Below are positions 6,237 through 46,333 of a stretch of 64,000 nucleotides of DNA, in pieces. Source of the stretch: Bacteroidota bacterium (GTDB lineage Bacteria; Bacteroidota; Bacteroidia; Bacteroidales; FEN-979). Position 1 is the stretch's first letter. Every line of letters starts with the position of its first letter. The position numbers were made by a program, and so were the translations under genes. The notes beneath the pieces are model-generated. The model was not told the origin of the DNA. It saw nothing but the letters and a program-made list of their open reading frames with translations, and did not search any database. The DNA is taken from NCBI GenBank assembly GCA_026391775.1, contig JAPLDK010000011.1:77066-141065 (forward strand), written 5' to 3'.

Positions 6237-6989
6237 TCACCCTGTTATTTCCTCCGGGTAATTCACATGGTGCAGGAACAACCCGCAAGCAGGCACCGAA
6301 TCCCCTGCATCGGAACGGTTCTTCGCTTCAATCACAAGTTTGAGGTCCCTCAGGCTCATTTTATCTGTTCCCAAATCGAGAAGGGTCCCTACAATTGCCC
6401 TCACCATATTCCTCAGGAACCTGTCGGCCGAAATTGTGAACACAAGCAAGTTCCCACTTCTCTCCCACCCGGCATGGCTGATTTTGCAGATTTTTGTTTT
6501 GGTATCGGAATCAACCTTGGAGAACGAAGTGAAATCGGAATATTTCATGATGAGTTCAGCGCCCCGGTTCATTATATCGATATCGATAGGGCCGTAATGA
6601 TAGAATGATTGATTGACCAGAAAGGGGTCCTTAACAAGGGTAATATGATATTGATATGTGCGAAGAGTTGCGCTGAACCGGGCATGGGCATCAGGTCTTA
6701 CACGAAAAATCTGTCGAATGGCAATATCTTTTCCAAGGTAGGAATTCAGTTTAAAAACCAGTTTGTCCGCCTGAATCCGGGTTAAGTCTTTTTCAAGGTC
6801 CATATGTGCAAAATACTCCCGGGCATGCACACCGGTATCAGTCCGTCCGCAGCCGGCAAGACTTACATTTTCCTTCAGCATCATGCTTAAAGCATCTGAA
6901 ATTACTTTCTGTATGCTGATGGCATTCTTCTGGGCCTGCCATCCATGGTAGCTGGTTCCGTCGTAGGATAATCTGATAAAGTATCTCAT
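6237..6989 (-). CDS. truA: tRNA pseudouridine(38-40) synthase TruA
   Basis: MRYFIRLSYDGTSYHGWQ.Q N-terminus and catalytic-Asp motif GCGRTDTGVHA. Confidence 0.92.
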   Translation of the reverse strand: MRYFIRLSYDGTSYHGWQAQKNAISIQKVISDALSMMLKENVSLAGCGRTDTGVHAREYFAHMDLEKDLTRIQADKLVFKLNSYLGKDIAIRQIFRVRPDAHARFSATLRTYQYHITLVKDPFLVNQSFYHYGPIDIDIMNRGAELIMKYSDFTSFSKVDSDTKTKICKISHAGWERSGNLLVFTISADRFLRNMVRAIVGTLLDLGTDKMSLRDLKLVIEAKNRSDAGDSVPACGLFLHHVNYPEEITG

Positions 6990-7111
6990 CGGTTTTAATA
7001 CTCACCAAAGGTAATTTGTTACTTCAAATATAATGAAGATTATAGTAATATGATAATTATACATAATTTATCTGTTTTTTCACTTAAATTTGTTATTTGA
7101 TAAACAGTACA

Positions 7112-7828
7112 ATGGGGCCCAGGAAAGATAAAGAAACCCAATGTGAACTCTGCCATCAGGCTTATCATAAATTTTTCATATGCCTCGACAGGGCCGACAT
7201 GCAATATCTTAACTCAGAAAGAGAGGTAAGGCTGTACCGTAAAGGGCAATATATTTTCGAAGAAGGTCATAAAACACATGGCATTTTCTGTATAAAAGAA
7301 GGACAGGTCAAACTCTATAAAAACGGTTTTGACGGGAGGGAACATATCACAAGAATAGCGTTCCCTGGTGATTTTATAGGAATGAGAGCGTTGTTAAGCG
7401 GACGTGATTATTCTGTGAATGCCACTGCAATGGAGGATACGACTGCTTGTTTTATCTCAAAGGCGGATTTTTTTCAACTGATGATAAAATATCCCGATTT
7501 TTCAAGGAGATTAATGGTCGTCCTCACTCAACTCCTTGCTGAAGCAGAGGCCCGGCTGATAAGTATCGCCCATCGTCCCTTAAAGGAACGTCTTGCCGAA
7601 TCCCTCCTTTTTTTGCATAATTCATTTCATAACACATCCCCTTCATTTCCAATACCTTACCTTAATTTGACAAGAACCGACCTGGCGAATATCATAGGAA
7701 CAACACCTGAAACAGTCATACGCATGTTATCCGCCCTTAAAGAAGAAAGAGTTATCAGTATCAAAGGCAGGAAGATCTATATTCTTGACCGCCCCAGGCT
7801 TGAATTTATTGCAAACGCGAAGTATTAA
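7112..7828 (+). CDS. Crp/Fnr-family transcription factor with an FNR-like cysteine set
   Basis: cNMP-binding beta-roll and a C-terminal HTH (LTRTDLANIIGTTPETVIRMLS). N-terminal CELCHQAYHKFFIC plus a Cys in AMEDTTACFISKADF, which aligns with E. coli FNR ALETSMVCEIPFETL. ATG at 7112 preferred over the TTG at 7097. Confidence 0.85.
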   Translation: MGPRKDKETQCELCHQAYHKFFICLDRADMQYLNSEREVRLYRKGQYIFEEGHKTHGIFCIKEGQVKLYKNGFDGREHITRIAFPGDFIGMRALLSGRDYSVNATAMEDTTACFISKADFFQLMIKYPDFSRRLMVVLTQLLAEAEARLISIAHRPLKERLAESLLFLHNSFHNTSPSFPIPYLNLTRTDLANIIGTTPETVIRMLSALKEERVISIKGRKIYILDRPRLEFIANAKY

Positions 7829-7879
7829 ACTTATGCGCTTTCCTTCATAAGTTAATATATTTTAAACATCCTGAAAAAC

Positions 7880-7893
7880 ATGATATAAATCAT
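7880..7893. promoter_or_regulatory. FNR/CRP-type inverted repeat ATGAT-N4-ATCAT
   Basis: ATGATATAAATCAT matches the core of the FNR consensus TTGAT-N4-ATCAA. It is centred about 42 nt upstream of the transcription start predicted from the -7-like element TTCATTTG at 7916-7923. Confidence 0.45.
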
Positions 7894-7920
7894 TTTTTTA
7901 CCGGTAATCTTTTACTTCAT

Positions 7921-7938
7921 TTGTTAACAAATTAACAA
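7921..7938. promoter_or_regulatory. Rex operator (perfect match to TTGTTAA-N4-TTAACAA)
   Basis: TTGTTAACAAATTAACAA lies 5 nt upstream of the hdrA-like start codon. A rex gene is present in the same window. Confidence 0.7.
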
Positions 7939-7942
7939 ATAG

Positions 7943-9748
7943 ATGAGAAGCAAAGAGATCACCGGTTTGTTCTTTTACAACCATTCGGGTTTGTATCCGG
8001 ACCCCATCGATTATTCAGAGTTAATCAGGTATTCATATTTATTTGAAAACGTAGCCAAAGCCTATACCTACTCTGATTTCATCTGGAATGAGAAAAACAT
8101 TCTGAAGAAAATCGAGGAGAATAATTTTAAGCGAATCATTATTGCAGGCTTGATTCCAGGGACCGTCAAGGCATTGTTTTCCAAAGCCATGGCGCTTGCA
8201 GGCAAAGATCCGGAGAAAGTCCTTCTTGCAAGTTTCAACGATTACTGTACAGGTACTTTATTCAATCCGGAGCGGCTTAAAATCGTTCTTGCTTCGATCA
8301 TATCAGGTATCCCTTATGAATTCACCGGGATTCCGGATGAACTGCCGGTTAATAATGCAACTCTTGTAGTAGGAGGAGGAATTTCAGGGATACAGGCTGC
8401 CCTGGAAATTGCTTACAGCAACAACCTGGTATACCTGGTGGAAAAAAGCGGTACCATAGGGGGGAAAATGGCCACATTTGACAAAACCTTCCCGACCCTT
8501 GACTGTGCTGCCTGTATACTTACTCCAAAAATGGTAGAGGTAAACCAGCATCCGAACATACGGCTGATGAGCTATTCCGAGATTATTGAAGTTACCGGCA
8601 GACCCGGAAATTTTAATGTCAAAGTGTTAAAAAAAGCCCGGAAGGTAAATGTGCAAACCTGTATCGGATGCGGAACCTGTGCCGAAAAGTGTCCTGCCCA
8701 GGCCCCAAGCGAGTTTGATGCCGGCACCTGCATGAGAAAAGCAATCTATATCCCTTTTCCACAGGCTGTTCCAAACAAATACCTTGTAGATGCGGAAAAC
8801 TGCATTTATCTGAAAAACGGAAAATGCAAAGCCTGTGTGAAAGCCTGTCCTGTCCCCGGCTGCATAGACCTGGATGAACAAGACTCTGAAGTCATTATTA
8901 ATGTCGGAAATATTATTATTGCCACCGGGTATAAGCCTTTCGATGCAGGGCGGATGACACAGTTCGGGTATGGGCAGTTCCCGAATGTCCTAAATTCGCT
9001 GGAGTTTGAAAGACTACTGAATGCTTCCGGCCCAACCAGCGGCAATATCCATTTCAGGAGTCAGGATAAAAAAGGGAATTGGATATTTAATACATCAACC
9101 GGAAAGCCGGAAAAGATCGCAATTATTCATTGTGTAGGCAGCCGTGACAAGAATTTCAATAAATATTGCTCGAGGGTGTGTTGTATGTACTCCCTGAAAT
9201 TCGCCCATCTGATCATGGAGAAACTTCCCGAAGCTGAAATTTTCGAATACTTTATCGACATGCGTTCCTTTGGTAAAGGTTATGAAGAGTTCTATGAGAG
9301 AATAAAGCAGGAGGATGTGTCTATTATCAGGGGTAAAACTGCAAAGGTCGAGCAGCATGGAGAAAAATTGTTTCTTAGGGGAGAAGACATCCTTAAAGGT
9401 GAGATCCTTGAAAACCTTGTGGACATGGTTATTTTATCGGTTGGCCTTGAATCAGGTGAGGATGCAGGGAAGATCAGTGAAATGCTGAACATTGCCACGA
9501 ATACTGACGGATGGTTTGAAGAGGCGCATTACAATCTTGACCCCACAGGAACCTGCCGCGGGGGCATCTTTCTGGCCGGCACATGCCAGGGGCCAAAAGA
9601 CATACCCGATTGTGTAGCCCAGGGATCTGCTGCTGCCGCCAGGGTTATTCAAAGCATTCTGAAAGGCAGGATACGCGACGATTCGATGTCGGTATCACTT
9701 GAACATGTGGAACGCAAAATAGAAGAATTATCTACTGTACCAATTTAA
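7943..9748 (+). CDS. HdrA/QmoA-type FAD and FeS flavoprotein, paralog 1
   Basis: FAD fold VVGGGISGIQAALEIA, HdrA hallmark HCVGSRDKNFNKYCSRVCCMYSLKF, and inserted ferredoxin motifs CIGCGTCAEKCP and CKACVKACP. Confidence 0.88.
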   Translation: MRSKEITGLFFYNHSGLYPDPIDYSELIRYSYLFENVAKAYTYSDFIWNEKNILKKIEENNFKRIIIAGLIPGTVKALFSKAMALAGKDPEKVLLASFNDYCTGTLFNPERLKIVLASIISGIPYEFTGIPDELPVNNATLVVGGGISGIQAALEIAYSNNLVYLVEKSGTIGGKMATFDKTFPTLDCAACILTPKMVEVNQHPNIRLMSYSEIIEVTGRPGNFNVKVLKKARKVNVQTCIGCGTCAEKCPAQAPSEFDAGTCMRKAIYIPFPQAVPNKYLVDAENCIYLKNGKCKACVKACPVPGCIDLDEQDSEVIINVGNIIIATGYKPFDAGRMTQFGYGQFPNVLNSLEFERLLNASGPTSGNIHFRSQDKKGNWIFNTSTGKPEKIAIIHCVGSRDKNFNKYCSRVCCMYSLKFAHLIMEKLPEAEIFEYFIDMRSFGKGYEEFYERIKQEDVSIIRGKTAKVEQHGEKLFLRGEDILKGEILENLVDMVILSVGLESGEDAGKISEMLNIATNTDGWFEEAHYNLDPTGTCRGGIFLAGTCQGPKDIPDCVAQGSAAAARVIQSILKGRIRDDSMSVSLEHVERKIEELSTVPI

Positions 9749-9761
9749 AACCAAGTATACC

Positions 9762-10892
9762 ATGAGTGTACGTGTTCAACCGGAGCTTAGGAACCAATTG
9801 ATTCAATTTGGCATTGGTGACTGGAATGCATGCTATCATTGCGGCACCTGCACTGCCCAATGCCCTCTTTCGGAAGAAGGCTTTCTTTTCCCGAGGAAAA
9901 AGATCCGCCTGATGCAGATGGGCCTGAAAAACGAGCTGGAAGCCAGTGTGGAGCCGTGGCTTTGTTATTATTGCGGCGACTGCTCAACATCCTGCCCCAG
10001 GGATGCCAATCCGGGCGAACTGATGATGTCGCTGAGAAGATATCTCACCTCAATCTATGACTGGACAGGTATGTCAAAGAAATTCTACACTTCTGAATTG
10101 TGGGAACTGGGCTTTATCATAGCGTTTGCCGCACTCGTTGTATTGTCGTTCCTAATCGTGCTTCCTTCTATGGGATATCATTTCACCAGGGAGCTGACAG
10201 CTGAAGGCGGAGTACAGGTCAATGCTTTCGCTCCAATCCATGTTGTCGAGACATTTGACTGGACCATGGCCGCCATAGTGGCATCCCTGCTTATTTCGAA
10301 CATTCTGAGGATGTATTACAAGATCATCTGGAAATATGGCAATATGAAAGTCAGCATATGGGTGCATATCAGGGAATTCTGGCTGCTTATCTTAAATTTC
10401 ACAGTACAACCGAAATTCAATAAATGCGATGACAAACGCTACTGGCTCTCACATTGGTTCCTGATGTCGGGGTACACTATCATGTTCATTGTTATTGTCG
10501 TCTATCTTCCATGGTTCCAAACAGAGAAGATCCTGCCGGTATGGCATCCTCAAAGGCTCCTCGGTTACTATGCAACCTTCGGGCTGCTCTTTGGTTTGTT
10601 CGTGGCTATAATCGGACGTATTCAACGGAAGGACATCAAATTTTTGTTTTCGCATATCAGTGACTGGCTTTTCCTCGCTATGCTAACCCTGACCGCAATT
10701 ACCGGCATACTGATCCATATTTTCAGGATAACCGGGATGCCGGTGGCCACATACATATCATACATTGCCCATATGTCGGTGCTGGTCCCGATGATTCTTA
10801 TCGAAGTGCCATTTTCAAAATGGTCCCATCTTGCCTACCGGCCTTTTGCCGTATATTTTCAACAGCTTAAAAAATATGCAGTTCCAAGGTAA
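9762..10892 (+). CDS. QmoC-like subunit: HdrC-type 2x[4Fe-4S] domain fused to a His-rich polytopic membrane domain
   Basis: N-terminal CYHCGTCTAQCP and CYYCGDCSTSCP are followed by at least five long hydrophobic segments with many His (WLSHWF, LIHIF, YIAHM, KWSHL). Confidence 0.7.
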   Translation: MSVRVQPELRNQLIQFGIGDWNACYHCGTCTAQCPLSEEGFLFPRKKIRLMQMGLKNELEASVEPWLCYYCGDCSTSCPRDANPGELMMSLRRYLTSIYDWTGMSKKFYTSELWELGFIIAFAALVVLSFLIVLPSMGYHFTRELTAEGGVQVNAFAPIHVVETFDWTMAAIVASLLISNILRMYYKIIWKYGNMKVSIWVHIREFWLLILNFTVQPKFNKCDDKRYWLSHWFLMSGYTIMFIVIVVYLPWFQTEKILPVWHPQRLLGYYATFGLLFGLFVAIIGRIQRKDIKFLFSHISDWLFLAMLTLTAITGILIHIFRITGMPVATYISYIAHMSVLVPMILIEVPFSKWSHLAYRPFAVYFQQLKKYAVPR

Positions 10893-10919
10893 TCCGATCA
10901 TCCCTGAAAAACAAAAATT

Positions 10920-12644
10920 ATGGAAGAACCGAGAATAGGGGTTTATGTCTGCTGGTGCGGCACCAATATCTCCAAAATGGTGGATGTGGAAGCTGTGACC
11001 AAGGAAGTCAGCACCCTGCCGAGCGTGGTCCTGTCAAAAAACTACAAATACATGTGTTCCGATCCAGGGCAGGATCTGATCATCAAGGATATCAAATCGC
11101 ATAATCTGAACCGGGTTGTTGTCGCTGCCTGCTCTCCCCGTCTTCACGAACTTACTTTCCGCAATGCCTGCGAGAAGGCAGGTATTAATCCCTACCTTTT
11201 CGAGATGGCAAACATTCGGGAGCAGGATTCCTGGGTACATACCGACCGCACTGAGGCAACCAAAAAAGCCATCGACCTTGTTATCGCAGCCATCAGAAGA
11301 GTAAGATACCACGAATCTTTGCAGAAACGCTCGGTGAATGTTGACCCGTCCACCCTTATCATTGGTGGAGGCATATCAGGAATGACTGCAGCTCTGGAGA
11401 TCGCAAATGCCGGCAAAAAAGTTTTCCTGATTGAAAAGGCCGACCATCTTGGTGGTCAGGTTGCGAGGTTCGACCTCACTTTCCCCCACCTCTCAAGCGC
11501 ACAACAGATGATAGGGCCAATGATACAGCGGGTTGAGAACCATCCCATGATCAATGTGTACCTGAACACTGAACTGAAAGAAGTCAAAGGGTACATAGGG
11601 AACTTCACGGCCAGGCTGCAGTTCATGGGTGTTGAACAGCCTGAGATAACCTTTGGCAATATCATAGCAGCTGTCGGCCTCAAACCGTTTGACCCATCAG
11701 TGATTGAAGAATACAGTTACGGCAAATTCCCGGATGTGATCACATCACTTGAATTCGAGGATAAGCTGAGGGCCGGCAGGATCCTTACAAAGTACGGCAA
11801 AGAGCCAAGGAATGTGGCAATCATACATTGCGTGGGCAGCCGAAACAAGAAATATCATGAGTACTGCTCCAGGGTCTGTTGCATGGTAGCATTGAAATTT
11901 GTCCATGAGATCCGCGCAGCACTGCCCGATGCCAATATTTTTGAGATTTATGCCGACATGAGGGCATATGGCAAAGGGCATGAAGAGTTCTATGCCATGA
12001 CCACGCATAAACAAATCATTTTTCTGATGTACGACCAGCAGAAACGCCTGCCCGTGATAAGTGAAGCTCACCGCGATGATGATTGCAATATGCTGATCGA
12101 AATGAATGAGCTTCTTTCGGGGATTGATATTGAAGTGCCTGTGGATATGGTGATACTGATGGTCAATATGGAGGCCCATGATAATGTCAAGGAAGTGGTC
12201 CGCGCTATTGGGGTGAGTTTATGCGGTAACCAGTTCTTTATTGAGAAACATCCGAAACTGGATCCGGTCGCCACGACTACCGGTGGTGTCTATATTGTCG
12301 GTACATGCCAGGGGCCTAAAGATATCCCGGATTCTGTTGCCCAGGCTAAAGCTGCTGCAGCCAGGATACTTGGGACTATTGCCCAGGGTTCTGTAGCGGT
12401 TGAAGTCACTACGGCCGTCGTTAACGAATCTCTTTGCTGTGGCTGCCAGACCTGCATCAGTGTATGCCCATATACGGCATTATCATATGATGAAATTAAA
12501 AAAGCATCGGTGGTCAATGAAGTATTATGTAAAGGTTGCGGAACCTGCGGAGGGTGTTGTCCGGCCGGGGCCATTACAAGTAAACATTTCACCGACCGCC
12601 AGATCCTTTCAGAGATTGAAGGTATAATGTCCATGTCATATTAA
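10920..12644 (+). CDS. HdrA/QmoB-type FAD and FeS flavoprotein, paralog 2, with C-terminal 2x[4Fe-4S] ferredoxin domain
   Basis: N-terminal IGVYVCWCGTNISK, IIGGGISGMTAALEIA, HCVGSRNKKYHEYCSRVCCMVALKF, and C-terminal CCGCQTCISVCP and CKGCGTCGGCCP. Confidence 0.88.
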   Translation: MEEPRIGVYVCWCGTNISKMVDVEAVTKEVSTLPSVVLSKNYKYMCSDPGQDLIIKDIKSHNLNRVVVAACSPRLHELTFRNACEKAGINPYLFEMANIREQDSWVHTDRTEATKKAIDLVIAAIRRVRYHESLQKRSVNVDPSTLIIGGGISGMTAALEIANAGKKVFLIEKADHLGGQVARFDLTFPHLSSAQQMIGPMIQRVENHPMINVYLNTELKEVKGYIGNFTARLQFMGVEQPEITFGNIIAAVGLKPFDPSVIEEYSYGKFPDVITSLEFEDKLRAGRILTKYGKEPRNVAIIHCVGSRNKKYHEYCSRVCCMVALKFVHEIRAALPDANIFEIYADMRAYGKGHEEFYAMTTHKQIIFLMYDQQKRLPVISEAHRDDDCNMLIEMNELLSGIDIEVPVDMVILMVNMEAHDNVKEVVRAIGVSLCGNQFFIEKHPKLDPVATTTGGVYIVGTCQGPKDIPDSVAQAKAAAARILGTIAQGSVAVEVTTAVVNESLCCGCQTCISVCPYTALSYDEIKKASVVNEVLCKGCGTCGGCCPAGAITSKHFTDRQILSEIEGIMSMSY

Positions 12645-12654
12645 CCGTAACAGT

Positions 12655-13092
12655 ATGAATTTCAGACCCACAATTGTAGCTTTCCTTTGCAACTGGTGCG
12701 CCTATACAGGCGCAGACCTTGCAGGCACATCGAGGCTTCACTATGCGCCGAATGTGCGTATCATCCGGATTATGTGTTCAGGCAGAATTGAACCCACTTT
12801 TATCCTGAAGGCCTTTAAAGAAGGAGCTGATGGTGTTCTTGTCTGTGGATGTCATCCGGGCGACTGCCATTACCAGGAAGGAAATTATAAATGCCTCAGG
12901 CGGTTTAAGCTGCTGGAAAAATTCGTCAGCCAGATGGGCATTGAAAAGGAACGGCTTAAGCTGGAATGGATCAGCGCCAGCGAAGGTAAACAGTTTGCCG
13001 AACTGATAAATGAGATGACAAAGACCATACTTCAGCTTGGTCCTGGCAAAGTGAATAAAACACTGGAATTTGAACATTTTAAAACGAAGTAA
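12655..13092 (+). CDS. mvhD: MvhD/FlpD-type hydrogenase delta subunit ([2Fe-2S])
   Basis: FLCNWCAYTGADLAG...IRIMCSGRIEP...GADGVLVCGCHPGDCHY is the classic MvhD signature. Confidence 0.92.
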   Translation: MNFRPTIVAFLCNWCAYTGADLAGTSRLHYAPNVRIIRIMCSGRIEPTFILKAFKEGADGVLVCGCHPGDCHYQEGNYKCLRRFKLLEKFVSQMGIEKERLKLEWISASEGKQFAELINEMTKTILQLGPGKVNKTLEFEHFKTK

Positions 13093-13094
13093 TC

Positions 13095-14075
13095 ATGGCT
13101 CAGGAATCCACCAAACCAAAACTTAAACTGGCAATATACTGGGGCGCTGCCTGCGGAGGCTGTTGTGTTTCCGTGCTCGACACGCATGAAAAGCTTCTTG
13201 ATATTGTTGCTGCAGCCGATCTTGTATTCTGGCCGATCGCGATGGATATTAAATACAAGGATGTTGAGAATATGCCCGATAAATCGATCGACCTGACACT
13301 TTTCAATGGGGCGGTCCGTAACAGTGAAAATAAACATTTGGCCCAGCTGCTCCGGCAAAAATCAAAAATCCTGGTGGCGTATGGCTCCTGCGCTTATATG
13401 GGGGGGATACCAGGCCTTGCAAACTTCTTCTCTCGCAATGAAATCTTTAAAAGGGCTTACGAGGAAACCGAATCTACCTTAAACCCTGATAAAACCATTC
13501 CTTTGCATAGTTTTAAAGTTAAAGAAGGAATCCTGGAGATCCCTGAAATGTTCAATGATGTTTTTCCCCTGAACCAGATCGTGGATGTGGATTATTATAT
13601 TCCCGGATGTCCTCCTCAGAGTGAGAGGCTGCTGGAAGTATTTTCAGCGATTGTATCCGGGATAGGGCTTCCGCCGGCCGGCTCGGTTGTCGGAGCCAAT
13701 GACAAGACCAACTGTGATGAGTGCAAGCGGAAAAAGTCCGATAAGAAGCAGATCAAAAGATTTTACAGACCCTGGGAGATCCAGGATGATAAAGAAACTT
13801 GTTTTATTGAACAGGGGGTTATCTGCATGGGTCCTGCAACCCGCGGAGGGTGCGGAGTCCGTTGTGTGGAAGGCAACTCTCCATGCCGGGGATGCTACGG
13901 ACCACCTCCCGGAGCAACCGACCCGGGCGCAAAAATGATGGCAGCAATCGGGACCATGATAGCTGCCGACAAACCTGAAGAGATTGATGAAATAATTGAA
14001 ACTATTGTTGACCCGGCCGGACTGTTCTACCGTTTCAGCCTGCCCGGCTCTATCTTGGGGAGGAAGATACTATGA
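13095..14075 (+). CDS. mvhG: [NiFe] hydrogenase small subunit, MvhG-like (group 3 type)
   Basis: No Tat signal. N-terminal WGAACGGCCVS, GCPP, and a C-terminal Cys-rich cluster region (CMGPATRGGCGVRCVEGNSPCRGCYGP). It sits directly upstream of the large subunit. Confidence 0.88.
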   Translation: MAQESTKPKLKLAIYWGAACGGCCVSVLDTHEKLLDIVAAADLVFWPIAMDIKYKDVENMPDKSIDLTLFNGAVRNSENKHLAQLLRQKSKILVAYGSCAYMGGIPGLANFFSRNEIFKRAYEETESTLNPDKTIPLHSFKVKEGILEIPEMFNDVFPLNQIVDVDYYIPGCPPQSERLLEVFSAIVSGIGLPPAGSVVGANDKTNCDECKRKKSDKKQIKRFYRPWEIQDDKETCFIEQGVICMGPATRGGCGVRCVEGNSPCRGCYGPPPGATDPGAKMMAAIGTMIAADKPEEIDEIIETIVDPAGLFYRFSLPGSILGRKIL

Positions 14076-15535
14076 AGCATATAAGCATTGATCCGATTAC
14101 AAGGCTTGAAGGCCATGGGAAGATAGAAATCTACCTCAACAATGAAGGGGAAGTTGAGAATGCCTACTTCCAGGTCCCCGAGCTGAGGGGTTTTGAAAAG
14201 TTTTGTGAAGGCCGGCCGGTTGAAGAACTGCCATCCATCGTCACAAAAATATGTGGTGTTTGTCCTGGCTGCCATCATATGGCTTCAGGCAAAGCCGTTG
14301 ATGGTGTTTTCGGTGTTGAACCACCCCCTACCGCTAAAAAATTAAGAGAACTTTTCTACATGGCTCATTTTGTCCACAGCCATATTGCCCACTTTTATGC
14401 TCTGGCAGCTCCCGACTTCGTTGTAGGCCCTACTGCAAACCCGGCTGAACGGAATATACTCGGGGTCATCGGTAAAGTAGGCCTGCAGATAGGGTCAGAA
14501 GTCATCAAACAGCGCCGAATTGCCCAGGAAATACAAGCACTTATCGGAGGTCACCAAACGCATGTCGTCATGAATACCCCCGGCGGGGTAAAAAAAGGCA
14601 TCACTCCGGAGCAACGGGATGATATTATAAAAAAAGCAGAAGGATTCGTTGAATTTGCAAAATTCTCGATTCAATTGTTCAAGGATGTGGTACTCGGAAA
14701 TAAGGAGTATGTCGAGCTCATCCTGCACGGCCCTTATTCATTGACACTGCATTCCATGGGGCTGGTCGATGAACAGAATAAAGTCAATTTCTATGACGGG
14801 AAAGTAAGGGTCGTAGATACCATTGGTAAAGAACTTTACAAGTATGCGCCAGGGCAGTACCTTGATTTCGTTGAGGAGCGGGTCGAACCATGGACATACC
14901 TGAAATTCCCATACCTTAAAAAGATCGGGTGGAAGGGCTTCACCGACGGCCAGGAATCAGGAGTTTACCAGGCTACACCACTGTCAAGACTGAATGCAGC
15001 TGACGGGATGGCAACGCCTATAGCTCAGCAGGAGTATGATTTTATGTATAAAACCCTTGGTGGGAAGCCGGTCCATGCTACACTTGCTATGCATTGGGCC
15101 AGGCTGATCGAATTGATATACGCAGCTGAACATTGCCTTGAACTCGCATTGGATCCGGAAATAACAGGTAAAGAACTTCGGGCCCCATTGGGGAAAATAG
15201 TCGGCGAAGGAATAGGAATTGTCGAAGCCCAGAGAGGAACACTCACCCATCATTACTGGACTGATGACAGAGGATTGGTCAGAAAAGTCAACCTGATCGT
15301 AGGAACCACCAACAATCATGCAGCGATCTGCATGTCAATTAAAAAAGCTGCCCAGGGCCTTATCAAAAAAGGCAGCGAGATAACGGAAGGGACACTGAAC
15401 ATGATTGAAATGGCCTTCAGGGCCTATGATCCTTGCTTCTCATGTGCCACTCATTCCCTTCCCGGCCAGATGAAGATGGTCCTTAACATCAGGGATATTG
15501 AAGGCAATATCATTGATTCATTCAGTAGAAAATAA
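14072..15535 (+). CDS. mvhA: [NiFe] hydrogenase large subunit, MvhA-like
   Basis: RLEGHGKIEI N-terminus, L1 motif KICGVCPGCHH, and C-terminal DPCFSCATH followed by a 26-aa tail expected to be cleaved. ATGA overlap with mvhG. Confidence 0.93.
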   Translation: MKHISIDPITRLEGHGKIEIYLNNEGEVENAYFQVPELRGFEKFCEGRPVEELPSIVTKICGVCPGCHHMASGKAVDGVFGVEPPPTAKKLRELFYMAHFVHSHIAHFYALAAPDFVVGPTANPAERNILGVIGKVGLQIGSEVIKQRRIAQEIQALIGGHQTHVVMNTPGGVKKGITPEQRDDIIKKAEGFVEFAKFSIQLFKDVVLGNKEYVELILHGPYSLTLHSMGLVDEQNKVNFYDGKVRVVDTIGKELYKYAPGQYLDFVEERVEPWTYLKFPYLKKIGWKGFTDGQESGVYQATPLSRLNAADGMATPIAQQEYDFMYKTLGGKPVHATLAMHWARLIELIYAAEHCLELALDPEITGKELRAPLGKIVGEGIGIVEAQRGTLTHHYWTDDRGLVRKVNLIVGTTNNHAAICMSIKKAAQGLIKKGSEITEGTLNMIEMAFRAYDPCFSCATHSLPGQMKMVLNIRDIEGNIIDSFSRK

Positions 15536-15544
15536 TGTTAAATT

Positions 15545-16036
15545 ATGGAAACAGAAAAAATTCTTGTTCTGGGCATAGGTAATGACATCCTCACGGATGA
15601 TGGTATCGGGCCAAAACTGGTCAGAGACCTAACTAATATGAAGCTGAACGTTGAGATTACATTTGAAACTGCTGCAGTGGGAGGCCTGGAGTTGCTGGAA
15701 ATTGTATCTGGGTATTCCCGCATTTTTATGATAGACGCCATCAGGACTTCAGGAGGGAAACCAGGGAATGTATACTTTCTCTCTCCGGATGATTTCAGGG
15801 AAACCATGCACATTTCAAACCTGCATGACATTAACTTCTTTACGGCACTTGAACTTGGCAACAAACTGAATTACCCTCTCCCCTCTGAGATTATGATAAT
15901 AGCCGTGGAGATAGCGGAAGACCTTGAATTCAGCGAACAACTAAGCCCGGCACTTCAAAAGCGCTATCCTGAAATCCTTTCGAAGGTCTCAAAGTTTCTT
16001 CTTGAGGCTCTGCTATTCCAGAAATTCAAAGCCTGA
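15545..16036 (+). CDS. Hydrogenase maturation endopeptidase (HyaD/HycI/FrhD family)
   Basis: ILVLGIGNDILTDDGIG motif, about 160 aa, immediately downstream of the large subunit. Confidence 0.88.
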   Translation: METEKILVLGIGNDILTDDGIGPKLVRDLTNMKLNVEITFETAAVGGLELLEIVSGYSRIFMIDAIRTSGGKPGNVYFLSPDDFRETMHISNLHDINFFTALELGNKLNYPLPSEIMIIAVEIAEDLEFSEQLSPALQKRYPEILSKVSKFLLEALLFQKFKA

Positions 16037-16051
16037 GACTCCTTCAGGATG

Positions 16052-19000
16052 TTAATAGGTTGTCCGGGCTGTGTAGTGTGTATGCAGCAGGTCTTCTGCC
16101 ACAGGGCCCATTGGATCGAGCAGGAATTCTTCATATGCTGCCAGGGCTTCTGGATTTTCATTAGCCTTCCGCAGATCAAGTCCCATTTCTTCAGCATATA
16201 ATGCCTGAACCCTTTTCAAGCGGATGTCAGGATTGGTGGGTATCGGCTGCCCCCCTCCGCCAAGGCATCCTCCGGGGCAAGCCATGATCTCGATAAAATG
16301 GAATTGGGAATCTCCGTTCCTAATCATTTGCATCAGGGTTTTTGCATGTGCCAGTCCATGAGCAACGGCAACTTTTAATTCCAAACCGTTCATGAAATTC
16401 CATTGTTCAAGACAATCCTGGATAGGCAGAGTGAGTTCCTTAATGCCATCCATACCACGGACCGGCCTGATGATCAGGTTTTCATATGGAACATCCCTGC
16501 CCGTGATCTTGTCATATACTGTGCGCAGTGCCGATTCCATAACACCTCCGGTGGCTCCGTAAATAACGCCTGCTCCGGAAGACCTGCCCATGAGGTCATC
16601 ATAATGGTCATTGGGCAGGGTTTTGAAATCAATGCCTGCCTGTATAATCATAATAGCCAGTTCACGGGTAGTAAGGACGAAGTCGACATCCTTAAACCCG
16701 CTGCCTCTCATCTCGGGGCGGTCAGCCTCAAACTTCTTCGCCGTACAGGGCATAATAGATACAGTGACAATATTTTCAGGCTTGATCTGGCGCTTTTTTG
16801 CATAGTAAGTTTTTGCCAGTACGCCAAACATCTGCTGAGGGGATTTACAGGTGGAAAGATGAGGCAGAAGATCCGGGAAATAATGCTCGCAGTATTTGAT
16901 CCATGCCGGGGAACAGGAAGTGATCATGGGTAGCTTTACAGTGTCATCATGAAAGTCCATTTTCTTTCGGAGCCTGTCGAGCAACTCTGCACTTTCTTCA
17001 ATGGTAGTGATATCGGCTGAAAATGCAGTATCCAGAACAGTATCAAATCCCAGTCTTCTCAGTGCGCTGACAAGCTTTCCTGTCACGCGTTTCCCGGGCT
17101 CGATGCCCAGGTCCTCCCCTATGGCGACCCTGACAGCAGGCGCTGTTTGAACAATCACATGCTTTTCTTTGTTCCATATGGCATGCCAGACTTCTTCAAT
17201 ATAATTCTTTTCAACCAAAGCGCCTGTCGGACAGCGGTCAATGCATTGTCCGCAATTAGTGCAGAATACTTCATACATGGATTTTCCCATATACGTTGAG
17301 ATCTTCATATTACTGCCCTTATGAGCCACCCAAACGGCACTCACACCCTGTATCTCGGAACAAGTGCGCACACAGCGCTGGCACCGCACACATTTACGGT
17401 CATCCTTGACAATTGCAGGAGAGAGTGTATCGAGTGTAATTCTTTCCTCATGGTGAAGAGGGATAAAAGTGGGATTAATAATCTTGAATTCAGATGCCAG
17501 GTTCTGAAGTTCACATTTGCCACTTTTATAGCAATTGGTGCAATCTGTAAAATGTTCCGATAGGAGCAATTCAAGCATTGCTTTCCGGGCGGTCCGAACA
17601 TTCATGCTGTTGGTTAATATGACCATGCCTTCTTCCAGAGGAGTAGAGCAGGAAGTAACCAGGTGTTTCGATTTTTCCAGTTCCACAATGCAGATCCTGC
17701 AATTCCCTGCTATCTTCAGGTCCTTGTGATAGCAAAGGGTCGGAATATGGATATTCATTGATCTGGCGGCATCCAGTATAGATAATCCTTCTTCAACGAA
17801 TACGGTCTGCCCGTCTAAAGTGACTTTGATTTTTTTCTTTAATGTCACTTCTTTTGATAACCCCACATAAAGGTCATACTTCTCGGCAATCTCATCCTGT
17901 GCAAGCTGGAGGGGTATACTTATATGGTCATATAAATCCTGTTTGCTGAAATGATAATCTTTTGACTGAAGGAGGTAATTGTTGATGGACTCGGCGAAAA
18001 TACCGAGCAGGGCGCTGATCTCAGCGCCGGTAAACCCTTCCTCGAAACGAGGCTGGGCAATATCATCCGTATAATTGATGATCAGGCTACGGTCTCCGTT
18101 GAGGATGGTTGAAGCCAGAACATTAAACAGTGTTAAGAGAACCAGATTAAGTTCCTGGATATCCATATGCTGATAATGCGACAGATCGACCGTGCTGCTT
18201 TCGGAATTTACCCTTACAATCATGGTATTGACCAGGTTCTCCTTGTCCCTTAAAAGAATTTCATAGATAAGGAGGTTTGTACGTACGGAAATGTGCCGTA
18301 AAGCAGCTTCATTCTTCACCTGCCATTCCATAGGATTGCTTTTCATCCTGGCAAGGAGGAACATCAGCCTTCTCATGATATGAAGGCGTGCAAGTGGTTC
18401 CCAACCCAGGGCCTGCCTGGTGTAGGAAGCATCCGTATCGAGTTTGAGGTCAAGATATTTCAGCATCCAGAAGCGTTCAAAAGGTACGGGTGTAAGTCTA
18501 AGCTTTCCCATGGCGATCCGGACTGCAATACCCGGATAAGCAAGGAGTCTTGGAATAAAGAATGGCTTTATAGCTTTCCCGAAAAAGTCTTTTGTTGCGA
18601 TCCCGAACAACTCCTTATGCGAAGTGCTCCCGTCGTGGCTGGCTGCATAAATATCAAATTGAGGCAGAAGGTGGCTTTTCTGCAAAACAATCACAATAAG
18701 CCTTGCCAGGTCGTGGATGTGAATATATGGCACGGCAGACTCGCCTTTCCCACCAAGAATCCTTGAGTCATATCCATTTGACAACCATGTCCCGAGAAAT
18801 TTGTACAGGGGTGGGTATTCGCAGAAATCACTGAACACAGCGGCAAAACGGATAACAATGGCGGGAATATCTTTGGAATTGTTCCTCAGCAGTTCTTCCC
18901 CTATTTTCTTGGTTTTGGCATATGCGAAATCTGCATCCGGTGAGGTCTTCTCACTGATAAAGTGGTCCGGGCCAGGGAAATTGCAGGCGGCCAGTGAACT

Positions 19001-19366
19001 GGCGAAAATAAAACGCTTGATTTTAAGCTGCCTTGCCAGGTCAAGGACATTCCTGGTCCCGTCAATATTCGTCCTCTGGTAAGCAATATCATCAGAATAA
19101 CTAAAATCATAAAAAGCAGCCAGATGCAGGAGGAAATCTGCACCCCCATTCAAATGTATCTCCTTGTAAACTTCCCTGATCTGCGCTGAATGAGCAATAT
19201 CCCATTGGATCCAATGGATATTTGGATGCTCGGCAATATTAGCTTCTTTCGCGGACCTTCGAGCAATGGCAAAAACCGTGAATTGTTCCTTGACAAATTC
19301 AAGAAAATACCGGCCTATAAAACCGGATGCGCCTGTGATTATAAGTGAAGGCAGACTGGAGTTCAT
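16052..19366 (-). CDS. Fusion protein: extended-SDR (NAD-dependent epimerase/dehydratase-type) domain, helical linker, then full-length M3-type [FeFe] hydrogenase
   Basis: One uninterrupted 1104-aa ORF. N-terminus has ITGASGFIGRYF (GxxGxxG), FASSLAA and YAKTK (YxxxK). From about residue 515: 2Fe-2S and FeS domains (CYHKDLKIAGNCRICIV, EHFTDCTNCYKSGKCELQ, CVRCQRCVRTC, CTNCGQCIDRCP). H-cluster motifs are TSCSPAW, MPCTAKKFE and EIMACPGGCLGGGGQP. Confidence 0.85.
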   Translation of the reverse strand: MNSSLPSLIITGASGFIGRYFLEFVKEQFTVFAIARRSAKEANIAEHPNIHWIQWDIAHSAQIREVYKEIHLNGGADFLLHLAAFYDFSYSDDIAYQRTNIDGTRNVLDLARQLKIKRFIFASSLAACNFPGPDHFISEKTSPDADFAYAKTKKIGEELLRNNSKDIPAIVIRFAAVFSDFCEYPPLYKFLGTWLSNGYDSRILGGKGESAVPYIHIHDLARLIVIVLQKSHLLPQFDIYAASHDGSTSHKELFGIATKDFFGKAIKPFFIPRLLAYPGIAVRIAMGKLRLTPVPFERFWMLKYLDLKLDTDASYTRQALGWEPLARLHIMRRLMFLLARMKSNPMEWQVKNEAALRHISVRTNLLIYEILLRDKENLVNTMIVRVNSESSTVDLSHYQHMDIQELNLVLLTLFNVLASTILNGDRSLIINYTDDIAQPRFEEGFTGAEISALLGIFAESINNYLLQSKDYHFSKQDLYDHISIPLQLAQDEIAEKYDLYVGLSKEVTLKKKIKVTLDGQTVFVEEGLSILDAARSMNIHIPTLCYHKDLKIAGNCRICIVELEKSKHLVTSCSTPLEEGMVILTNSMNVRTARKAMLELLLSEHFTDCTNCYKSGKCELQNLASEFKIINPTFIPLHHEERITLDTLSPAIVKDDRKCVRCQRCVRTCSEIQGVSAVWVAHKGSNMKISTYMGKSMYEVFCTNCGQCIDRCPTGALVEKNYIEEVWHAIWNKEKHVIVQTAPAVRVAIGEDLGIEPGKRVTGKLVSALRRLGFDTVLDTAFSADITTIEESAELLDRLRKKMDFHDDTVKLPMITSCSPAWIKYCEHYFPDLLPHLSTCKSPQQMFGVLAKTYYAKKRQIKPENIVTVSIMPCTAKKFEADRPEMRGSGFKDVDFVLTTRELAIMIIQAGIDFKTLPNDHYDDLMGRSSGAGVIYGATGGVMESALRTVYDKITGRDVPYENLIIRPVRGMDGIKELTLPIQDCLEQWNFMNGLELKVAVAHGLAHAKTLMQMIRNGDSQFHFIEIMACPGGCLGGGGQPIPTNPDIRLKRVQALYAEEMGLDLRKANENPEALAAYEEFLLDPMGPVAEDLLHTHYTARTTY

Positions 19367-19752
19367 ATTGATCGTATATAAAGCCTGTATGAAATCAAAA
19401 TAGCCAACCCCATCATCAGATCACCAGCTCCCGAAAAGAGTACCATAATTATTGGCCTGTCGAACAGATAATATGAAAACAGGAAGACGGCTGCTGTGAA
19501 TTTGGTCACACATGATAAAATTACCAACTTTTTTGAATTCTCAGGAGCCAGGGCCGCCATAATATAAGCCAGGCTGATGATCAGATGGAAAACACCACCC
19601 TGGTCGGCAAAGAATTTTTCCTGTAACTGAAATCCGAAAAATTCTATCCATCCTGACGGAAAAATTATCAGGGCTAACCCAAAACATATGGAATGAATGG
19701 CGATAAGCCAAAGTACCCATTGCAATAAAAGACGGCTGTTTGACGAGGTCAT
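19363..19752 (-). CDS. Small integral membrane protein (about 4 TM), co-transcribed with the SDR-hydrogenase fusion
   Basis: 129-aa ORF made almost entirely of hydrophobic helices. Its stop overlaps the fusion gene start in an ATGA junction (19363-19366). Confidence 0.6.
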   Translation of the reverse strand: MTSSNSRLLLQWVLWLIAIHSICFGLALIIFPSGWIEFFGFQLQEKFFADQGGVFHLIISLAYIMAALAPENSKKLVILSCVTKFTAAVFLFSYYLFDRPIIMVLFSGAGDLMMGLAILISYRLYIRSI

Positions 19753-19884: not shown

Positions 19885-20352
19885 ATGGCTACAAACAACA
19901 ACAATTACATCGGTGAATTAGTCGAGCAGTACGGAAGAACCCGTTCCAGCCTGATGCCAATTCTGCAGGGAGTGATTGAGAAAAAGAACTTTATTTCAGA
20001 CATGGACATGACTGAAATTGCAAAAGAACTCGATCTTTCTGCAGCTCAGGTTTACGGTACTGCAACCTTCTATGCATTTCTTGAAACACAACCACGCGGA
20101 CAATATGTGATCCGTGTCTGCAAAACTATTACCTGCGACATGCATGGCAAAAAAACTATCGTACAGACGATTGAAGACATGCTGAAGATCAAAGCCGGAG
20201 AAACCACCCCGAACAAAAAGTTCACTTTGCTTGAGACCAATTGCCTTGGCTGGTGCCATGAAGGACCGGCCATGCTGATCAATGAGAAACCTTATTCCGG
20301 TCTTACACCCGAGAAGGTCCATGACATTTTAAGTGAGTATATGCATAAATAA
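19885..20352 (+). CDS. NuoE/HydC-like [2Fe-2S] subunit (set 1)
   Basis: Thioredoxin-like ferredoxin pattern CKTITCDMHG ... CLGWCHEGPAMLIN. Confidence 0.88.
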   Translation: MATNNNNYIGELVEQYGRTRSSLMPILQGVIEKKNFISDMDMTEIAKELDLSAAQVYGTATFYAFLETQPRGQYVIRVCKTITCDMHGKKTIVQTIEDMLKIKAGETTPNKKFTLLETNCLGWCHEGPAMLINEKPYSGLTPEKVHDILSEYMHK

Positions 20353-20373
20353 TTTAACATAAGGAGATTGACA

Positions 20374-21540
20374 ATGTCTGATACCAAACTAAAACGAGTT
20401 GACCTTATTTTTGGCGAATATTCCAATGTTAAGTATAAGGTTCTGGAGGATACACTAAAACGTTCTACTGACGAGATCCTTGAAGACCTGCTGGAATCGG
20501 GTTTGCGTGGCCGCGGCGGTGCAGGTTTTCCGACCGCCATGAAATGGAAATATACAGCTCAGGCCCCGGGAGAGGAAAAATATGTTGTTTGTAATGCCGA
20601 CGAAGGTGAACCAGGTACATTTAAAGACCGTGAGATCCTGACCCGTGTTCCAAGGAAAGTATTTTCGGGCATGGCGATCTGCGGTAAGGTGATTGGTGCA
20701 AAGAGAGGCTATATCTATCTCAGAGGAGAATATAAATTCCTATTGCCAGATCTTAATAAAGAACTTACAGATTATCACGAGCATGCTAAGACTATTGGCC
20801 TGGATTTTCTGATCGAGATCAAGCTGGGCAGCGGGGCATATATTTGCGGTGAAGAAAGCGCTCTTTTTGAATCCATGGAAGGGAACCGCGGTGAGCCAAG
20901 AAACAAACCTCCCTACCCCACAACTTATGGATACCTTGGGAAACCCACGGTTATCAATAATGTGGAAACTTTTGTAAATGTGCTGATGATCATGCGTCTC
21001 GGCCCCATACAGTTCAAAATGCTGGGGACTACTGACTCACGTGGATCAAAAGTATTTTCGGTTTCGGGCGATACTCCTATTCCTGGCATTTACGAACTGG
21101 AATTAGGGATGCCCCTCGATCGTTTTGTTGATGAATTCGGCGACGGTGACGCCAAGGCTGTCCAGGTTGGAGGTGCTTCCGGATTCTGTGTACCGCGCAA
21201 AAAATTTAAAGATACAGTTATAGGATTTGAAGGTGTTCCCACCGGAGGCTCCATGATGCTCTTCAACAGCTCCAGATCCATGTTCAATGTTTTACACAAT
21301 TATCTCGAATTCTTTGAAGAAGAATCCTGCGGACAATGTACTCCCTGCCGTGTCGGCTGCCAGCAACTCCGCAAGGGCATTGAAGCAGTGAAGAAAGGTG
21401 ACAAGAAATCTCTTTATCTAGACCAGCTCCTGAAACTTTCCGAAAGCATGAGGCTGACGGCAAAATGCGGTCTCGGCCAGTCAGTCGCCAACTCATTCTC
21501 ATCTATCGTATATAACTTCAAAGAAGAAATGATTTACTAA
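20374..21540 (+). CDS. NuoF/HydB-like FMN/NAD(H)-binding subunit, minimal form without accessory ferredoxin domains (set 1)
   Basis: GLRGRGGAGFPTAMKWK, GSGAYICGEESALFESMEG, ESCGQCTPCR...KCGLGQ. The protein ends directly after the N3-type cluster motif. ATG at 20374 preferred (AAGGAG 7 nt upstream) over the TTG at 20368. Confidence 0.88.
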   Translation: MSDTKLKRVDLIFGEYSNVKYKVLEDTLKRSTDEILEDLLESGLRGRGGAGFPTAMKWKYTAQAPGEEKYVVCNADEGEPGTFKDREILTRVPRKVFSGMAICGKVIGAKRGYIYLRGEYKFLLPDLNKELTDYHEHAKTIGLDFLIEIKLGSGAYICGEESALFESMEGNRGEPRNKPPYPTTYGYLGKPTVINNVETFVNVLMIMRLGPIQFKMLGTTDSRGSKVFSVSGDTPIPGIYELELGMPLDRFVDEFGDGDAKAVQVGGASGFCVPRKKFKDTVIGFEGVPTGGSMMLFNSSRSMFNVLHNYLEFFEEESCGQCTPCRVGCQQLRKGIEAVKKGDKKSLYLDQLLKLSESMRLTAKCGLGQSVANSFSSIVYNFKEEMIY

Positions 21541-21553
21541 AGGAACACTAAGC

Positions 21554-34074: not shown

Positions 34075-34089
34075 GGAAAAAGGAACGTT

Positions 34090-35862: not shown

Positions 35863-35934
35863 TAAACAGTTACTAGGAACTGGGTACTAGGCAACTAGTA
35901 AACCCAAAACCCAGAGCCCAGAAACCAGAAAATT

Positions 35935-36414
35935 ATGGCGAAAATAAAATTATCGGAGAAGAAGATCCAGGAGCTGAAAGATGTTTGCAAAACTTTCCAT
36001 AACGATAAGGGCGAACTGATTAACATACTTCATAAGGCTCAGAGTTTGTTCGGTTATCTTCCAGCTGAGCTGCAGGAAGTAATAGCAAAGGAGCTCAATG
36101 TTTCCGTTGCCCATGTTTACGGTGTGGTCACTTTTTATTCTTTCTTCACCATGCAGCCTAAGGGCAAGCATCCTGTTTCTATCTGTCTTGGAACCGCTTG
36201 CTATGTGCGTGGTTCCGAAAAAGTACTCGAGGAATTCAAACGACAATTAAACATACAGGTTGGCCAGACCACTGCCGACGGCAAGTTTTCCCTCAGCTGT
36301 CTCAGGTGTGTTGGCGCTTGTGGACTGGCTCCGGTTGTACTTGTAGGTGAAAAAGTATATGGACGTGTGGCCCCAGATGGCGTATCCGACATCATCGCGG
36401 AATACAATATTTAA
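35935..36414 (+). CDS. hydC: NuoE/HydC-like [2Fe-2S] subunit (set 2)
   Basis: CLGTACYVRGS ... CLRCVGACGLAPVVLV. Confidence 0.9.
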   Translation: MAKIKLSEKKIQELKDVCKTFHNDKGELINILHKAQSLFGYLPAELQEVIAKELNVSVAHVYGVVTFYSFFTMQPKGKHPVSICLGTACYVRGSEKVLEEFKRQLNIQVGQTTADGKFSLSCLRCVGACGLAPVVLVGEKVYGRVAPDGVSDIIAEYNI

Positions 36415-37697: not shown

Positions 37698-37706
37698 TGG
37701 CCGGAC

Positions 37707-39575: not shown

Positions 39576-39654
39576 AATGGTCAAAATTACAAATATATCA
39601 GCTCTTTCGACAAGATTCTCCAAATTTTTTCTTCCGAAATACCTAACCCTTTTA

Positions 39655-40252: not shown

Positions 40253-40253
40253 C

Positions 40254-42203: not shown

Positions 42204-42211
42204 GGGGAATT

Positions 42212-46301: not shown

Positions 46302-46333
46302 TGTTGAAATACAGGTTTTTTCCCTTATTTTTG

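Follow-up and report, generated by a model that had tools for sequence, protein, structure and literature searches.

The stretch of DNA analyzed here (hereafter, the window) comprises 64 kb from a Bacteroidota bacterium (GenBank assembly GCA_026391775.1, contig JAPLDK010000011.1, positions 77,066 to 141,065), and carries at 7943-16036 an operon in which the genes of a Qmo-like module, made up of two HdrA-type flavoproteins and a QmoC-like membrane subunit, directly precede those of an Mvh-type [NiFe] hydrogenase. An earlier note on this DNA had described seven tightly packed genes in this region; all seven open reading frames were recovered, intact and on the same (+) strand, with intergenic gaps of 13, 27, 10, 2, -4 and 9 nucleotides in order, and a further gap of 114 nucleotides separates the operon from an upstream gene of the Crp/Fnr family. 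The first gene (7943-9748) encodes a QmoA-like HdrA paralogue of 601 amino acids (5odc_A, E = 1.9e-139; NF040770, E = 1.6e-165), the second (9762-10892) a QmoC-like subunit of 376 amino acids, and the third (10920-12644) a QmoB-like HdrA paralogue of 574 amino acids (8rvu_a, E = 3.1e-149; NF040770, E = 6.4e-172). They are followed by MvhD, the [2Fe-2S] adaptor (12655-13092, 145 amino acids; PF02662, E = 4.9e-57; VhuD, E = 2.3e-40), the MvhG-type small subunit (13095-14075, 326 amino acids; VhuG, E = 1.8e-66; PF01058), the MvhA-type large subunit (14072-15535, 487 amino acids; 5odc_F, E = 7.6e-120; VhuA, E = 4.9e-112) and a hydrogenase maturation endopeptidase (15545-16036, 163 amino acids; TIGR00072, E = 4.4e-28; PF01750). 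Judged by its predicted domains, the module, ordered A-C-B, consists of a QmoA with an additional Cys-less N-terminal domain, a QmoC, and a QmoB from which the MvhD domain has been separated. The anatomy proposed earlier, i.e., a split QmoA / QmoC / QmoB plus MvhD set joined to an Mvh-type hydrogenase, is thus one on which the Cys ligands, the homology to QmoC, the match to MvhA and the synteny agree.

The two flavoproteins divide the elements of HdrA between them. The 601-residue protein consists of an N-terminal domain devoid of Cys, a flavin adenine dinucleotide (FAD) domain, a Cys197-type loop (C188/C191), an inserted 2x[4Fe-4S] ferredoxin domain (8 Cys) and a flavin-domain cluster (C397/409/413/414), and has no C-terminal ferredoxin domain. 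The 574-residue protein carries an N-terminal cluster (C11/13/46/71), a FAD domain, a flavin-domain cluster (C304/316/320/321) and a C-terminal 2x[4Fe-4S] ferredoxin domain (C506/509/512/516 and C537/540/543/547); it lacks both the Cys197-type loop, where its sequence reads FPHLSSAQQ, and the inserted ferredoxin domain, which is skipped in the alignment of 8rvu_a to this protein as two stretches. Each element of the published Mvh-Hdr path is found once, and once only, in the pair, and the complementary Cys pattern is kept in 33 orthologues of the 601-residue type and 36 of the 574-residue type. In the Mvh-Hdr structure one branch exits via the flavin-domain cluster to HdrBC, and the complementarity of N-terminal domain and Cys197 in tandem HdrA genes was read as a sign of obligate heterodimers (Chadwick et al., 2022, PMC9012536). 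Since the pair in the window shows complementarity of this type, a heterodimer of HdrA paralogues is implied.

A comparison with a canonical Qmo complex is provided by L064, a sat-aprBA-qmoABC locus (labels of the form L0xx designate relatives found by scanning species-representative genomes). Its QmoA (421 amino acids) aligns with residues 137-576 of the 601-residue protein and has 13 of the 15 tracked Cys in common with it, retaining all eight Cys of the inserted ferredoxin domain, the four of the flavin-domain cluster and, of the two in the Cys197-type loop, one. Its QmoB (739 amino acids) aligns with the 574-residue protein, with 15 of 17 tracked Cys in common, and retains the Cys of the N-terminal cluster, the flavin-domain cluster and the eight Cys of the C-terminal ferredoxin domain, after which comes its MvhD domain at residues 603-732.

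As regards the 376-residue subunit, it matches the NCBIfam model of QmoC (NF038018) over model positions 6-359 of 360 (E = 1.7e-57, 195 bits), and is 48% identical to the QmoC of L064 over residues 1-371. Two CX2CX2CX3CP motifs of the HdrC type (C24/27/30/34 and C68/71/74/78, for 2x[4Fe-4S]) lie in its N-terminal domain, which matches HdrC chains of the PDB (7bkb_C, E = 2.2e-13). All eight cluster Cys and four invariant His are present both in this protein and in the QmoC of L064, and in 81 QmoC-type sequences the eight cluster Cys, C222, H231, H319, H337 and H356 are invariant or nearly so, H298 being conserved at 94%. The membrane part had been described as a polytopic, His-rich domain: six predicted transmembrane helices make it polytopic indeed, while "His-rich" overstates a total of nine His, four of which (H231, H319, H337 and H356) are invariant in the family.

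An AlphaFold2 model of this subunit (predicted local distance difference test, pLDDT, 80; predicted template modeling score, pTM, 0.79) contains six long membrane helices, at 112-136, 159-191, 228-247, 263-288, 299-324 and 327-351. Mapped onto the predicted helices, as had been suggested, H231, H319, H337 and H356 lie at helix ends or inside. If the Fe-S domain is oriented to the cytoplasm, the cytoplasmic side would hold H231 and H356, and H319 and H337 would be nearer the outer side, a placement compatible in the model with two bis-His haems. The QmoC of Desulfovibrio is a cytochrome b subunit and the Qmo complex reacts with quinols, in the summary that Ramos et al. (2012, PMC3333476) give with reference to Pires et al. 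(2003), and it is from homology to QmoC that we infer haem b and an interaction with quinone for the subunit in the window.

The earlier note had also proposed to compare this protein with the HdrC family and with cytochromes b of the NarI/HdrE type. The HdrC part is confirmed by the matches given above; the relation to NarI/HdrE-type cytochromes is weak and passes through QmoC. PF02665 (NarI) leaves the QmoC-like protein of the window itself unmatched, matching nine of 34 close relatives (best E = 2.8e-5) and two of 33 diverse ones. Direct alignment with hhalign of two QmoC-family alignments against Escherichia coli NarI indicated no relation (probabilities 0.1 and 0.6), and a profile search of the PDB with the QmoC-family alignment matched the HdrC domain alone and nothing in the membrane part. 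A Foldseek search with the AlphaFold2 model returned no match at E <= 0.001; its sole high-probability matches were EtfD of M. smegmatis (9ojn, probability 1.00) and NarI (probability 0.82-0.89), all with E > 0.1.

The remaining genes had been assigned to MvhD, MvhG, MvhA and their endopeptidase, and this assignment holds: VhuD, VhuG and VhuA are the best NCBIfam matches, with scores under the equivalog cut-offs, and the large subunit is nearest to the MvhA chain 5odc_F, which ranks ahead of 7t2r_D and 5xf9_D. Taking bit scores against PDB chains as a proxy for phylogenetic placement in HydDB, the large subunit may belong to group 3c, with 404 (5odc_F) and 379 bits for Mvh, 360 for HydABCSL and 319 for the NAD-reducing enzyme, while Frh, sulfhydrogenase and group 1 enzymes score at most 132 bits. 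It has the motifs CGVC at the N-terminus and DPCFSCATH at the C-terminus, followed by a cleavable C-terminal tail; the presence of mvhD and mvhG beside it is consistent with an Mvh-type large subunit, and the endopeptidase gene at the end of the operon is kept in related loci. The small subunit has no twin-arginine signal and is therefore predicted to be cytoplasmic.

Scanning species-representative genomes with the QmoC-like protein yielded at least 570 loci, and among the best 80, which were examined, all come from metagenome-assembled genomes (MAGs) and none from a cultured isolate. The A-C-B order, or a shortened version of it, occurs in 42 of these 80, and mvhD-mvhG-mvhA directly adjoins the module in 29 of the 33 loci with enough flanking sequence. 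The survey of gene neighborhoods that had been called for thus finds the synteny of module and hydrogenase kept across phyla: linked loci span Bacteroidota, Chlorobiota, Ignavibacteriales and Aminicenantes, so that an arrangement first remarked upon with Bacteroidota in mind is indeed present there, but is not peculiar to them. The same gene set in dozens of species-level genomes means that the arrangement is not due to chance. The hydrogenase lies downstream of the module in many MAGs of Bacteroidales, Prolixibacteraceae, Marinilabiliales and Cyclobacteriaceae, and likewise in a Chlorobiota (L025), an Ignavibacteriales (L032) and an Aminicenantes (L049) MAG; it lies upstream in L031, L036, L038, L045, L048 and L061. 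Two loci, L018 (8184-20566) and L011 (1376-14995), have a second A-C-B paralogue beside the first, with about 40% identity in QmoC, the two modules flanking or adjoining a single mvhDGA set. Furthermore, in L058 (Aminicenantes, 6661-14409) a fused A+B protein of 1098 amino acids is followed by QmoC and then by MvhD-G-A, i.e., the same link reached by another route.

The four exceptions to this linkage among the 33 loci are one SAR324 locus and three loci of Rikenellaceae. In the former (L033, 7785-16330) two Fe-S proteins and a flavoprotein with NAD_binding_1 and DHODB_Fe-S domains come after the A-C-B module and MvhD, and MvhGA are absent. By its predicted domains, this implies an Flx-like NAD(P)H module in the place of the hydrogenase, and hence a putative NAD(P)H-driven counterpart; such a swap of the input with MvhD retained points to a modular design of the form input - MvhD - HdrA pair - QmoC. 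In the Rikenellaceae loci (L026, 6976-14664; L024; L029) the A subunit is extended at its N-terminus by fused receiver and GcvH-like (lipoyl-carrier-like) domains, and there is no hydrogenase. The same domain pair recurs in the next gene of these loci, and recalls the lipoate-binding proteins of sulfur-oxidizing Hdr-like systems.

Other combinations were also found around QmoC. In L057 (Ca. Methanoperedens, 8985-17252) an HdrD-like CCG protein, QmoC, a fused HdrA of 1084 amino acids, MvhD, HdrA and again MvhD follow one another. In L035, L050, L067 and similar Qmo-like loci of A-B-C order, a small separate MvhD-like gene lies upstream, with no apr or sat gene nearby, and a conserved open reading frame of about 95-130 codons sits between the B and C genes. 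Judging from such gene contexts, Qmo-type complexes unconnected with reducing adenosine 5'-phosphosulfate (APS) seem common. In a neighbor-joining tree of QmoC, loci of the A-C-B and A-B-C orders were not cleanly resolved from each other, and monophyly of the A-C-B type is not claimed.

From these elements we infer that the seven genes would give rise to one membrane-attached complex on the cytoplasmic face, able to bind haem and quinone and to bifurcate electrons, and probably working in the direction of H2 uptake. MvhA/G would oxidize H2 and pass the electrons through MvhD into the QmoA/QmoB-like HdrA heterodimer, where they would enter by the C-terminal ferredoxin domain of the 574-residue subunit, proceed to FAD and be bifurcated there. 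The high-potential branch would run from the flavin-domain [4Fe-4S] cluster through the two HdrC-type clusters and two b-type haems of the QmoC-like subunit to menaquinone (MK). The low-potential branch would pass from the N-terminal cluster, presumably liganded by Cys of the 574-residue subunit together with the Cys197-type Cys of the 601-residue subunit, through the inserted ferredoxin domain of the latter to ferredoxin (Fd). The net reaction would be 2 H2 + MK + 2 Fd(ox) -> MKH2 + 2 Fd(red) + 2 H+, likened to that of MvhADG-HdrABC, with the quinone pool, reached via QmoC, replacing the heterodisulfide reached via HdrBC. EtfABCX/FixABCX offers a precedent for bifurcation in which a quinone is the high-potential acceptor.

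With textbook potentials of -414 mV for H2, about -75 mV for MK and about -500 mV for Fd, this reaction is calculated to be exergonic when H2 stands at 1 bar and to approach equilibrium at about 10 Pa, as it also would at the H2 levels of sediments, and thus could run either way; the uptake of H2 is the likelier direction because H2 production is already provided for by several [FeFe] hydrogenases of the organism. That the hydrogenase and the Qmo-like module form one H2-to-quinone complex seems to us probable. For the full model, the most likely function to judge by the genes, i.e., a membrane-bound oxidoreductase of H2 with menaquinone and ferredoxin in which electrons would be bifurcated, the chances appear evenly balanced.

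The alternative that survives best, though we regard it as unlikely, is a non-bifurcating H2:menaquinone oxidoreductase facing the cytoplasm, in which the flavoproteins would merely relay electrons from MvhD to QmoC and ferredoxin would not be a substrate. It preserves the best-supported part of the model, namely the link between H2 and a Qmo-type quinone module, and it gains from the fact that bifurcation by the canonical Qmo complex has never been demonstrated (Ramos et al., 2012, PMC3333476). Nevertheless, a simple relay needs neither two FAD proteins nor an inserted ferredoxin domain plus an N-terminal cluster, and the last two elements, which constitute the ferredoxin branch in Mvh-Hdr, are conserved across phyla.

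The absence of any HdrB/HdrD-type (CCG) reading frame from the operon, remarked upon earlier, was confirmed by Pfam and regular-expression searches and extends to the whole 64-kb window, whose single match to the CCG expression falls inside the ferredoxin domain of the 574-residue protein, as well as to the 42 related loci, within 10 kb of which the expression matched nothing. As a positive control, the same expression finds real CCG proteins, confirmed by PF02754, beside QmoC in six loci that are not of the A-C-B type. Likewise, no apr, sat, dsr or hyp gene occurs in the window, and tblastn searches with Sat, AprB and AprA of L064 gave no match in the window or in any A-C-B locus, the matches being limited to four loci of canonical order (L064, L071, L073 and L075). 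The canonical role of Qmo with AprAB in sulfur metabolism was rejected for this operon, since neither the window nor the surroundings of the A-C-B loci contain apr, sat or dsr genes.

It is therefore improbable, in our view, that the acceptor is something other than quinone, with the QmoC-like subunit serving mainly as an anchor or conduit towards a soluble protein or a thiol system whose genes lie elsewhere (HdrB/DsrC-like, AprAB-like or other). The idea draws on the interaction of canonical QmoA with AprAB (Ramos et al., 2012, PMC3333476), on the CCG proteins beside QmoC in L057 and L071, on the GcvH-like domains of the Rikenellaceae variants and on the fact that the visible genome amounts to 64 kb. 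Yet such CCG, Apr or Sat partners, where they exist, are encoded beside the module, and none is found in the window or in the vicinity of the 42 A-C-B loci; moreover, the four invariant His of the membrane domain argue for haems over a passive anchor.

The reaction could also be reversed in the same complex, with reduced ferredoxin and menaquinol confurcated to H2 during fermentation at very low H2, a possibility that we consider quite improbable. The hydrogenase island that makes up the window belongs to a fermentative anaerobe, and the mean potential of the two donors (about -290 mV, calculated from textbook potentials) lies near that of the H+/H2 couple at about 10 Pa H2. However, such a reaction would be feasible at very low H2 only, several [FeFe] hydrogenases already serve H2 evolution, and an outward quinone site, as proposed for Qmo (Ramos et al., 2012, PMC3333476), would force electrons against the membrane potential. 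Finally, that hydrogenase and Qmo-like module are separate enzymes under common regulation is very unlikely. In its favor, the complex is known from genes alone, the position of the hydrogenase varies (upstream or downstream), and a further A-C-B module is found in L011 and L018. Against it stand the established role of MvhD in connecting MvhAG with HdrA and the fusion of this same domain to QmoB; moreover, MvhD stays when the Flx-like module replaces the hydrogenase (L033), and adjacency holds in 29 of 33 loci across phyla.

Several points weigh against the bifurcating H2:menaquinone/ferredoxin complex and must be kept in mind. The QmoC-like protein, with its 195 bits, scores under the 300-bit NCBIfam equivalog cut-off and thus represents a paralogous subfamily; the VhuA score of the large subunit is also under its cut-off. 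The predicted binding of haem and quinone leans on homology to QmoC, the direct comparison with NarI-type cytochromes b being negative or weak, and the complex as such is deduced from its genes. Given that bifurcation by Qmo is itself undemonstrated, the analogy with Qmo is no proof of bifurcation here. Both flavoproteins keep their FAD motifs and flavin-domain clusters, and the real electron path could differ from that drawn above; a partner of the HdrB/DsrC type could be encoded outside the window; and the sign of any coupling to the proton-motive force depends on the membrane side at which quinone binds.

Concerning regulation, the gene directly upstream of the operon (7097-7828, +) encodes a Crp/Fnr-family regulator (PF00027 and PF13545; best NCBIfam match, Fnr) whose translation displays FNR-like cysteines (C16, C19, C29 and C118). 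A homologue occupies the position directly upstream of the module in about 24 related loci. Between this gene and the operon, at 7881-7892, the palindrome TGATATAAATCA (TGAy-N4-rTCA) lies 62 nucleotides 5' of the first start codon; it was found by eye and with a regular expression, having been missed by the inverted-repeat finder, and two copies of the strict motif are all that the window contains. A TGAy-N4-rTCA box is located at -61 to -65 in most of the loci with the Crp/Fnr gene upstream (L001, L002, L004, L005, L009-L012, L014 and L018), and is absent where the module follows mvhA. The palindrome is a putative binding site of the adjacent FNR-like regulator, which probably controls the expression of the operon. 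The position of the box and the FNR-like Cys would place the start of the operon at 7943 and suggest redox or oxygen control. Scans of the window for sigma-70 promoters and terminators did no better than on shuffled sequence, their models being unsuited to Bacteroidota.

The rest of the window is rich in [FeFe] hydrogenases. Converging on the end of the Mvh operon, a gene at 16052-19366 (-) encodes a protein of 1104 amino acids in which an N-terminal NAD-dependent epimerase/short-chain dehydrogenase/reductase (SDR) domain is joined by a linker of about 270 residues to a group A [FeFe] hydrogenase that is complete (812 bits with NF040763, above the cut-off). This fusion, which looks unusual, is present at full length and at the same position in eight related loci (65-89% identity). 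Directly upstream of it and overlapping it by 4 nucleotides, 19363-19752 (-) encodes a hydrophobic protein of 129 amino acids with no family match. Three more [FeFe] sets of the HydABC type (NuoE-like, NuoF-like and HydA) are found at 19885-23368, 32614-36414 and 40200-43924 (+), making the window a hydrogenase island. Moreover, the regions 36513-39623 (-), 43921-47483 (+) and 47474-48115 (+) encode two sensory-type [FeFe] hydrogenase-like proteins and their regulatory neighbors: one, with a PAS domain, adjoins a SpoIIE/PP2C phosphatase, and after the other, which is fused directly to a histidine kinase, come a hybrid response-regulator/kinase and a Rex-like redox repressor. These sensory proteins and regulators suggest an H2-sensing regulatory circuit.

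How do these results stand with respect to what has been described? No description of a Qmo-type module joined to Mvh was found in the open literature, and an earlier mention in the main review of HdrA modules could exist. A hydrogenase has been named among the possible partners of QmoB (Ramos et al., 2012, PMC3333476). The bifurcating Mvh has been defined by its requirement for HdrABC (Poudel et al., 2018), a criterion by which surveys would miss these Qmo-linked hydrogenases. Furthermore, papers on MAGs report "group 3c, heterodisulfide-linked" hydrogenases in related phyla without distinguishing between HdrBC and Qmo, and such annotations in Bacteroidota and related MAGs may name the wrong acceptor. 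The locus also bears on a question posed by sulfate reducers, namely whether Qmo, with menaquinone, bifurcates or confurcates electrons and which partner the MvhD domain of QmoB receives; here a candidate partner of QmoB is encoded in place, so that H2 is known as the electron donor and a direct test of the hypothesis is feasible. If the bifurcating complex is real, fermenters would feed the electrons of H2 to the quinone pool, e.g., for fumarate respiration, while regenerating low-potential ferredoxin. More tentatively, and at somewhat less than even chances, we propose a broader generalization: that this would be the first HdrA-based membrane-bound bifurcating hydrogenase with the quinone pool as its high-potential acceptor, representative of a widespread class so far confined to uncultured members of anoxic Bacteroidota, Chlorobiota, Ignavibacteriales and Aminicenantes, and that the MvhD domain of QmoB would be the docking site for a hydrogenase or dehydrogenase input module, in keeping with the "third partner" logic of Qmo.

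Among known systems, the dihaem cytochrome b anchors of the HdrDE/NarI type and the EtfD of M. smegmatis (9ojn) recall the membrane subunit by their b-type cytochrome-like helical bundle together with an HdrC-like Fe-S domain; the operon in the window has no CCG domain, and the NarI profile tests are negative. The NADH dehydrogenase/heterodisulfide reductase FlxABCD-HdrABC of Desulfovibrio resembles the predicted assembly in that an input module docks on the HdrA module through a subunit of the MvhD type (FlxD), but its input is NAD(P)H instead of a hydrogenase, and HdrBC stands where the window has QmoC.

The likeness to MvhADG-HdrABC of methanogens (group 3c; PDB 5ODC) is closer on the hydrogenase side: MvhA, MvhG and MvhD are the best matches, the HdrC-type di-cluster domain is present, and the HdrA fold and all HdrA cofactor sites are found across the pair of flavoproteins. 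In contrast, the window lacks the HdrB/CCG catalytic subunit, its HdrC is joined to a membrane domain, two complementary paralogues stand in for the single four-domain, homodimeric HdrA of methanogens, and the predicted acceptor is a quinone rather than CoM-S-S-CoB.

In turn, the module itself is most like QmoABC, with which it shares two complementary HdrA-like flavoproteins with the same pattern of Cys ligands, an MvhD module placed after the B subunit, and a QmoC composed of an HdrC domain and a six-helix membrane domain. It differs from QmoABC, whose order is A-B-C and whose MvhD domain is fused to QmoB, in its A-C-B order, its separate MvhD, the extra Cys-less N-terminal domain of its A subunit, and its linkage to mvhGA instead of apr and sat. 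Every part of the system, either from Mvh-Hdr or from Qmo, is thus already known, and it is their combination, conserved and widespread among uncultured anaerobes, that is mechanistically informative.

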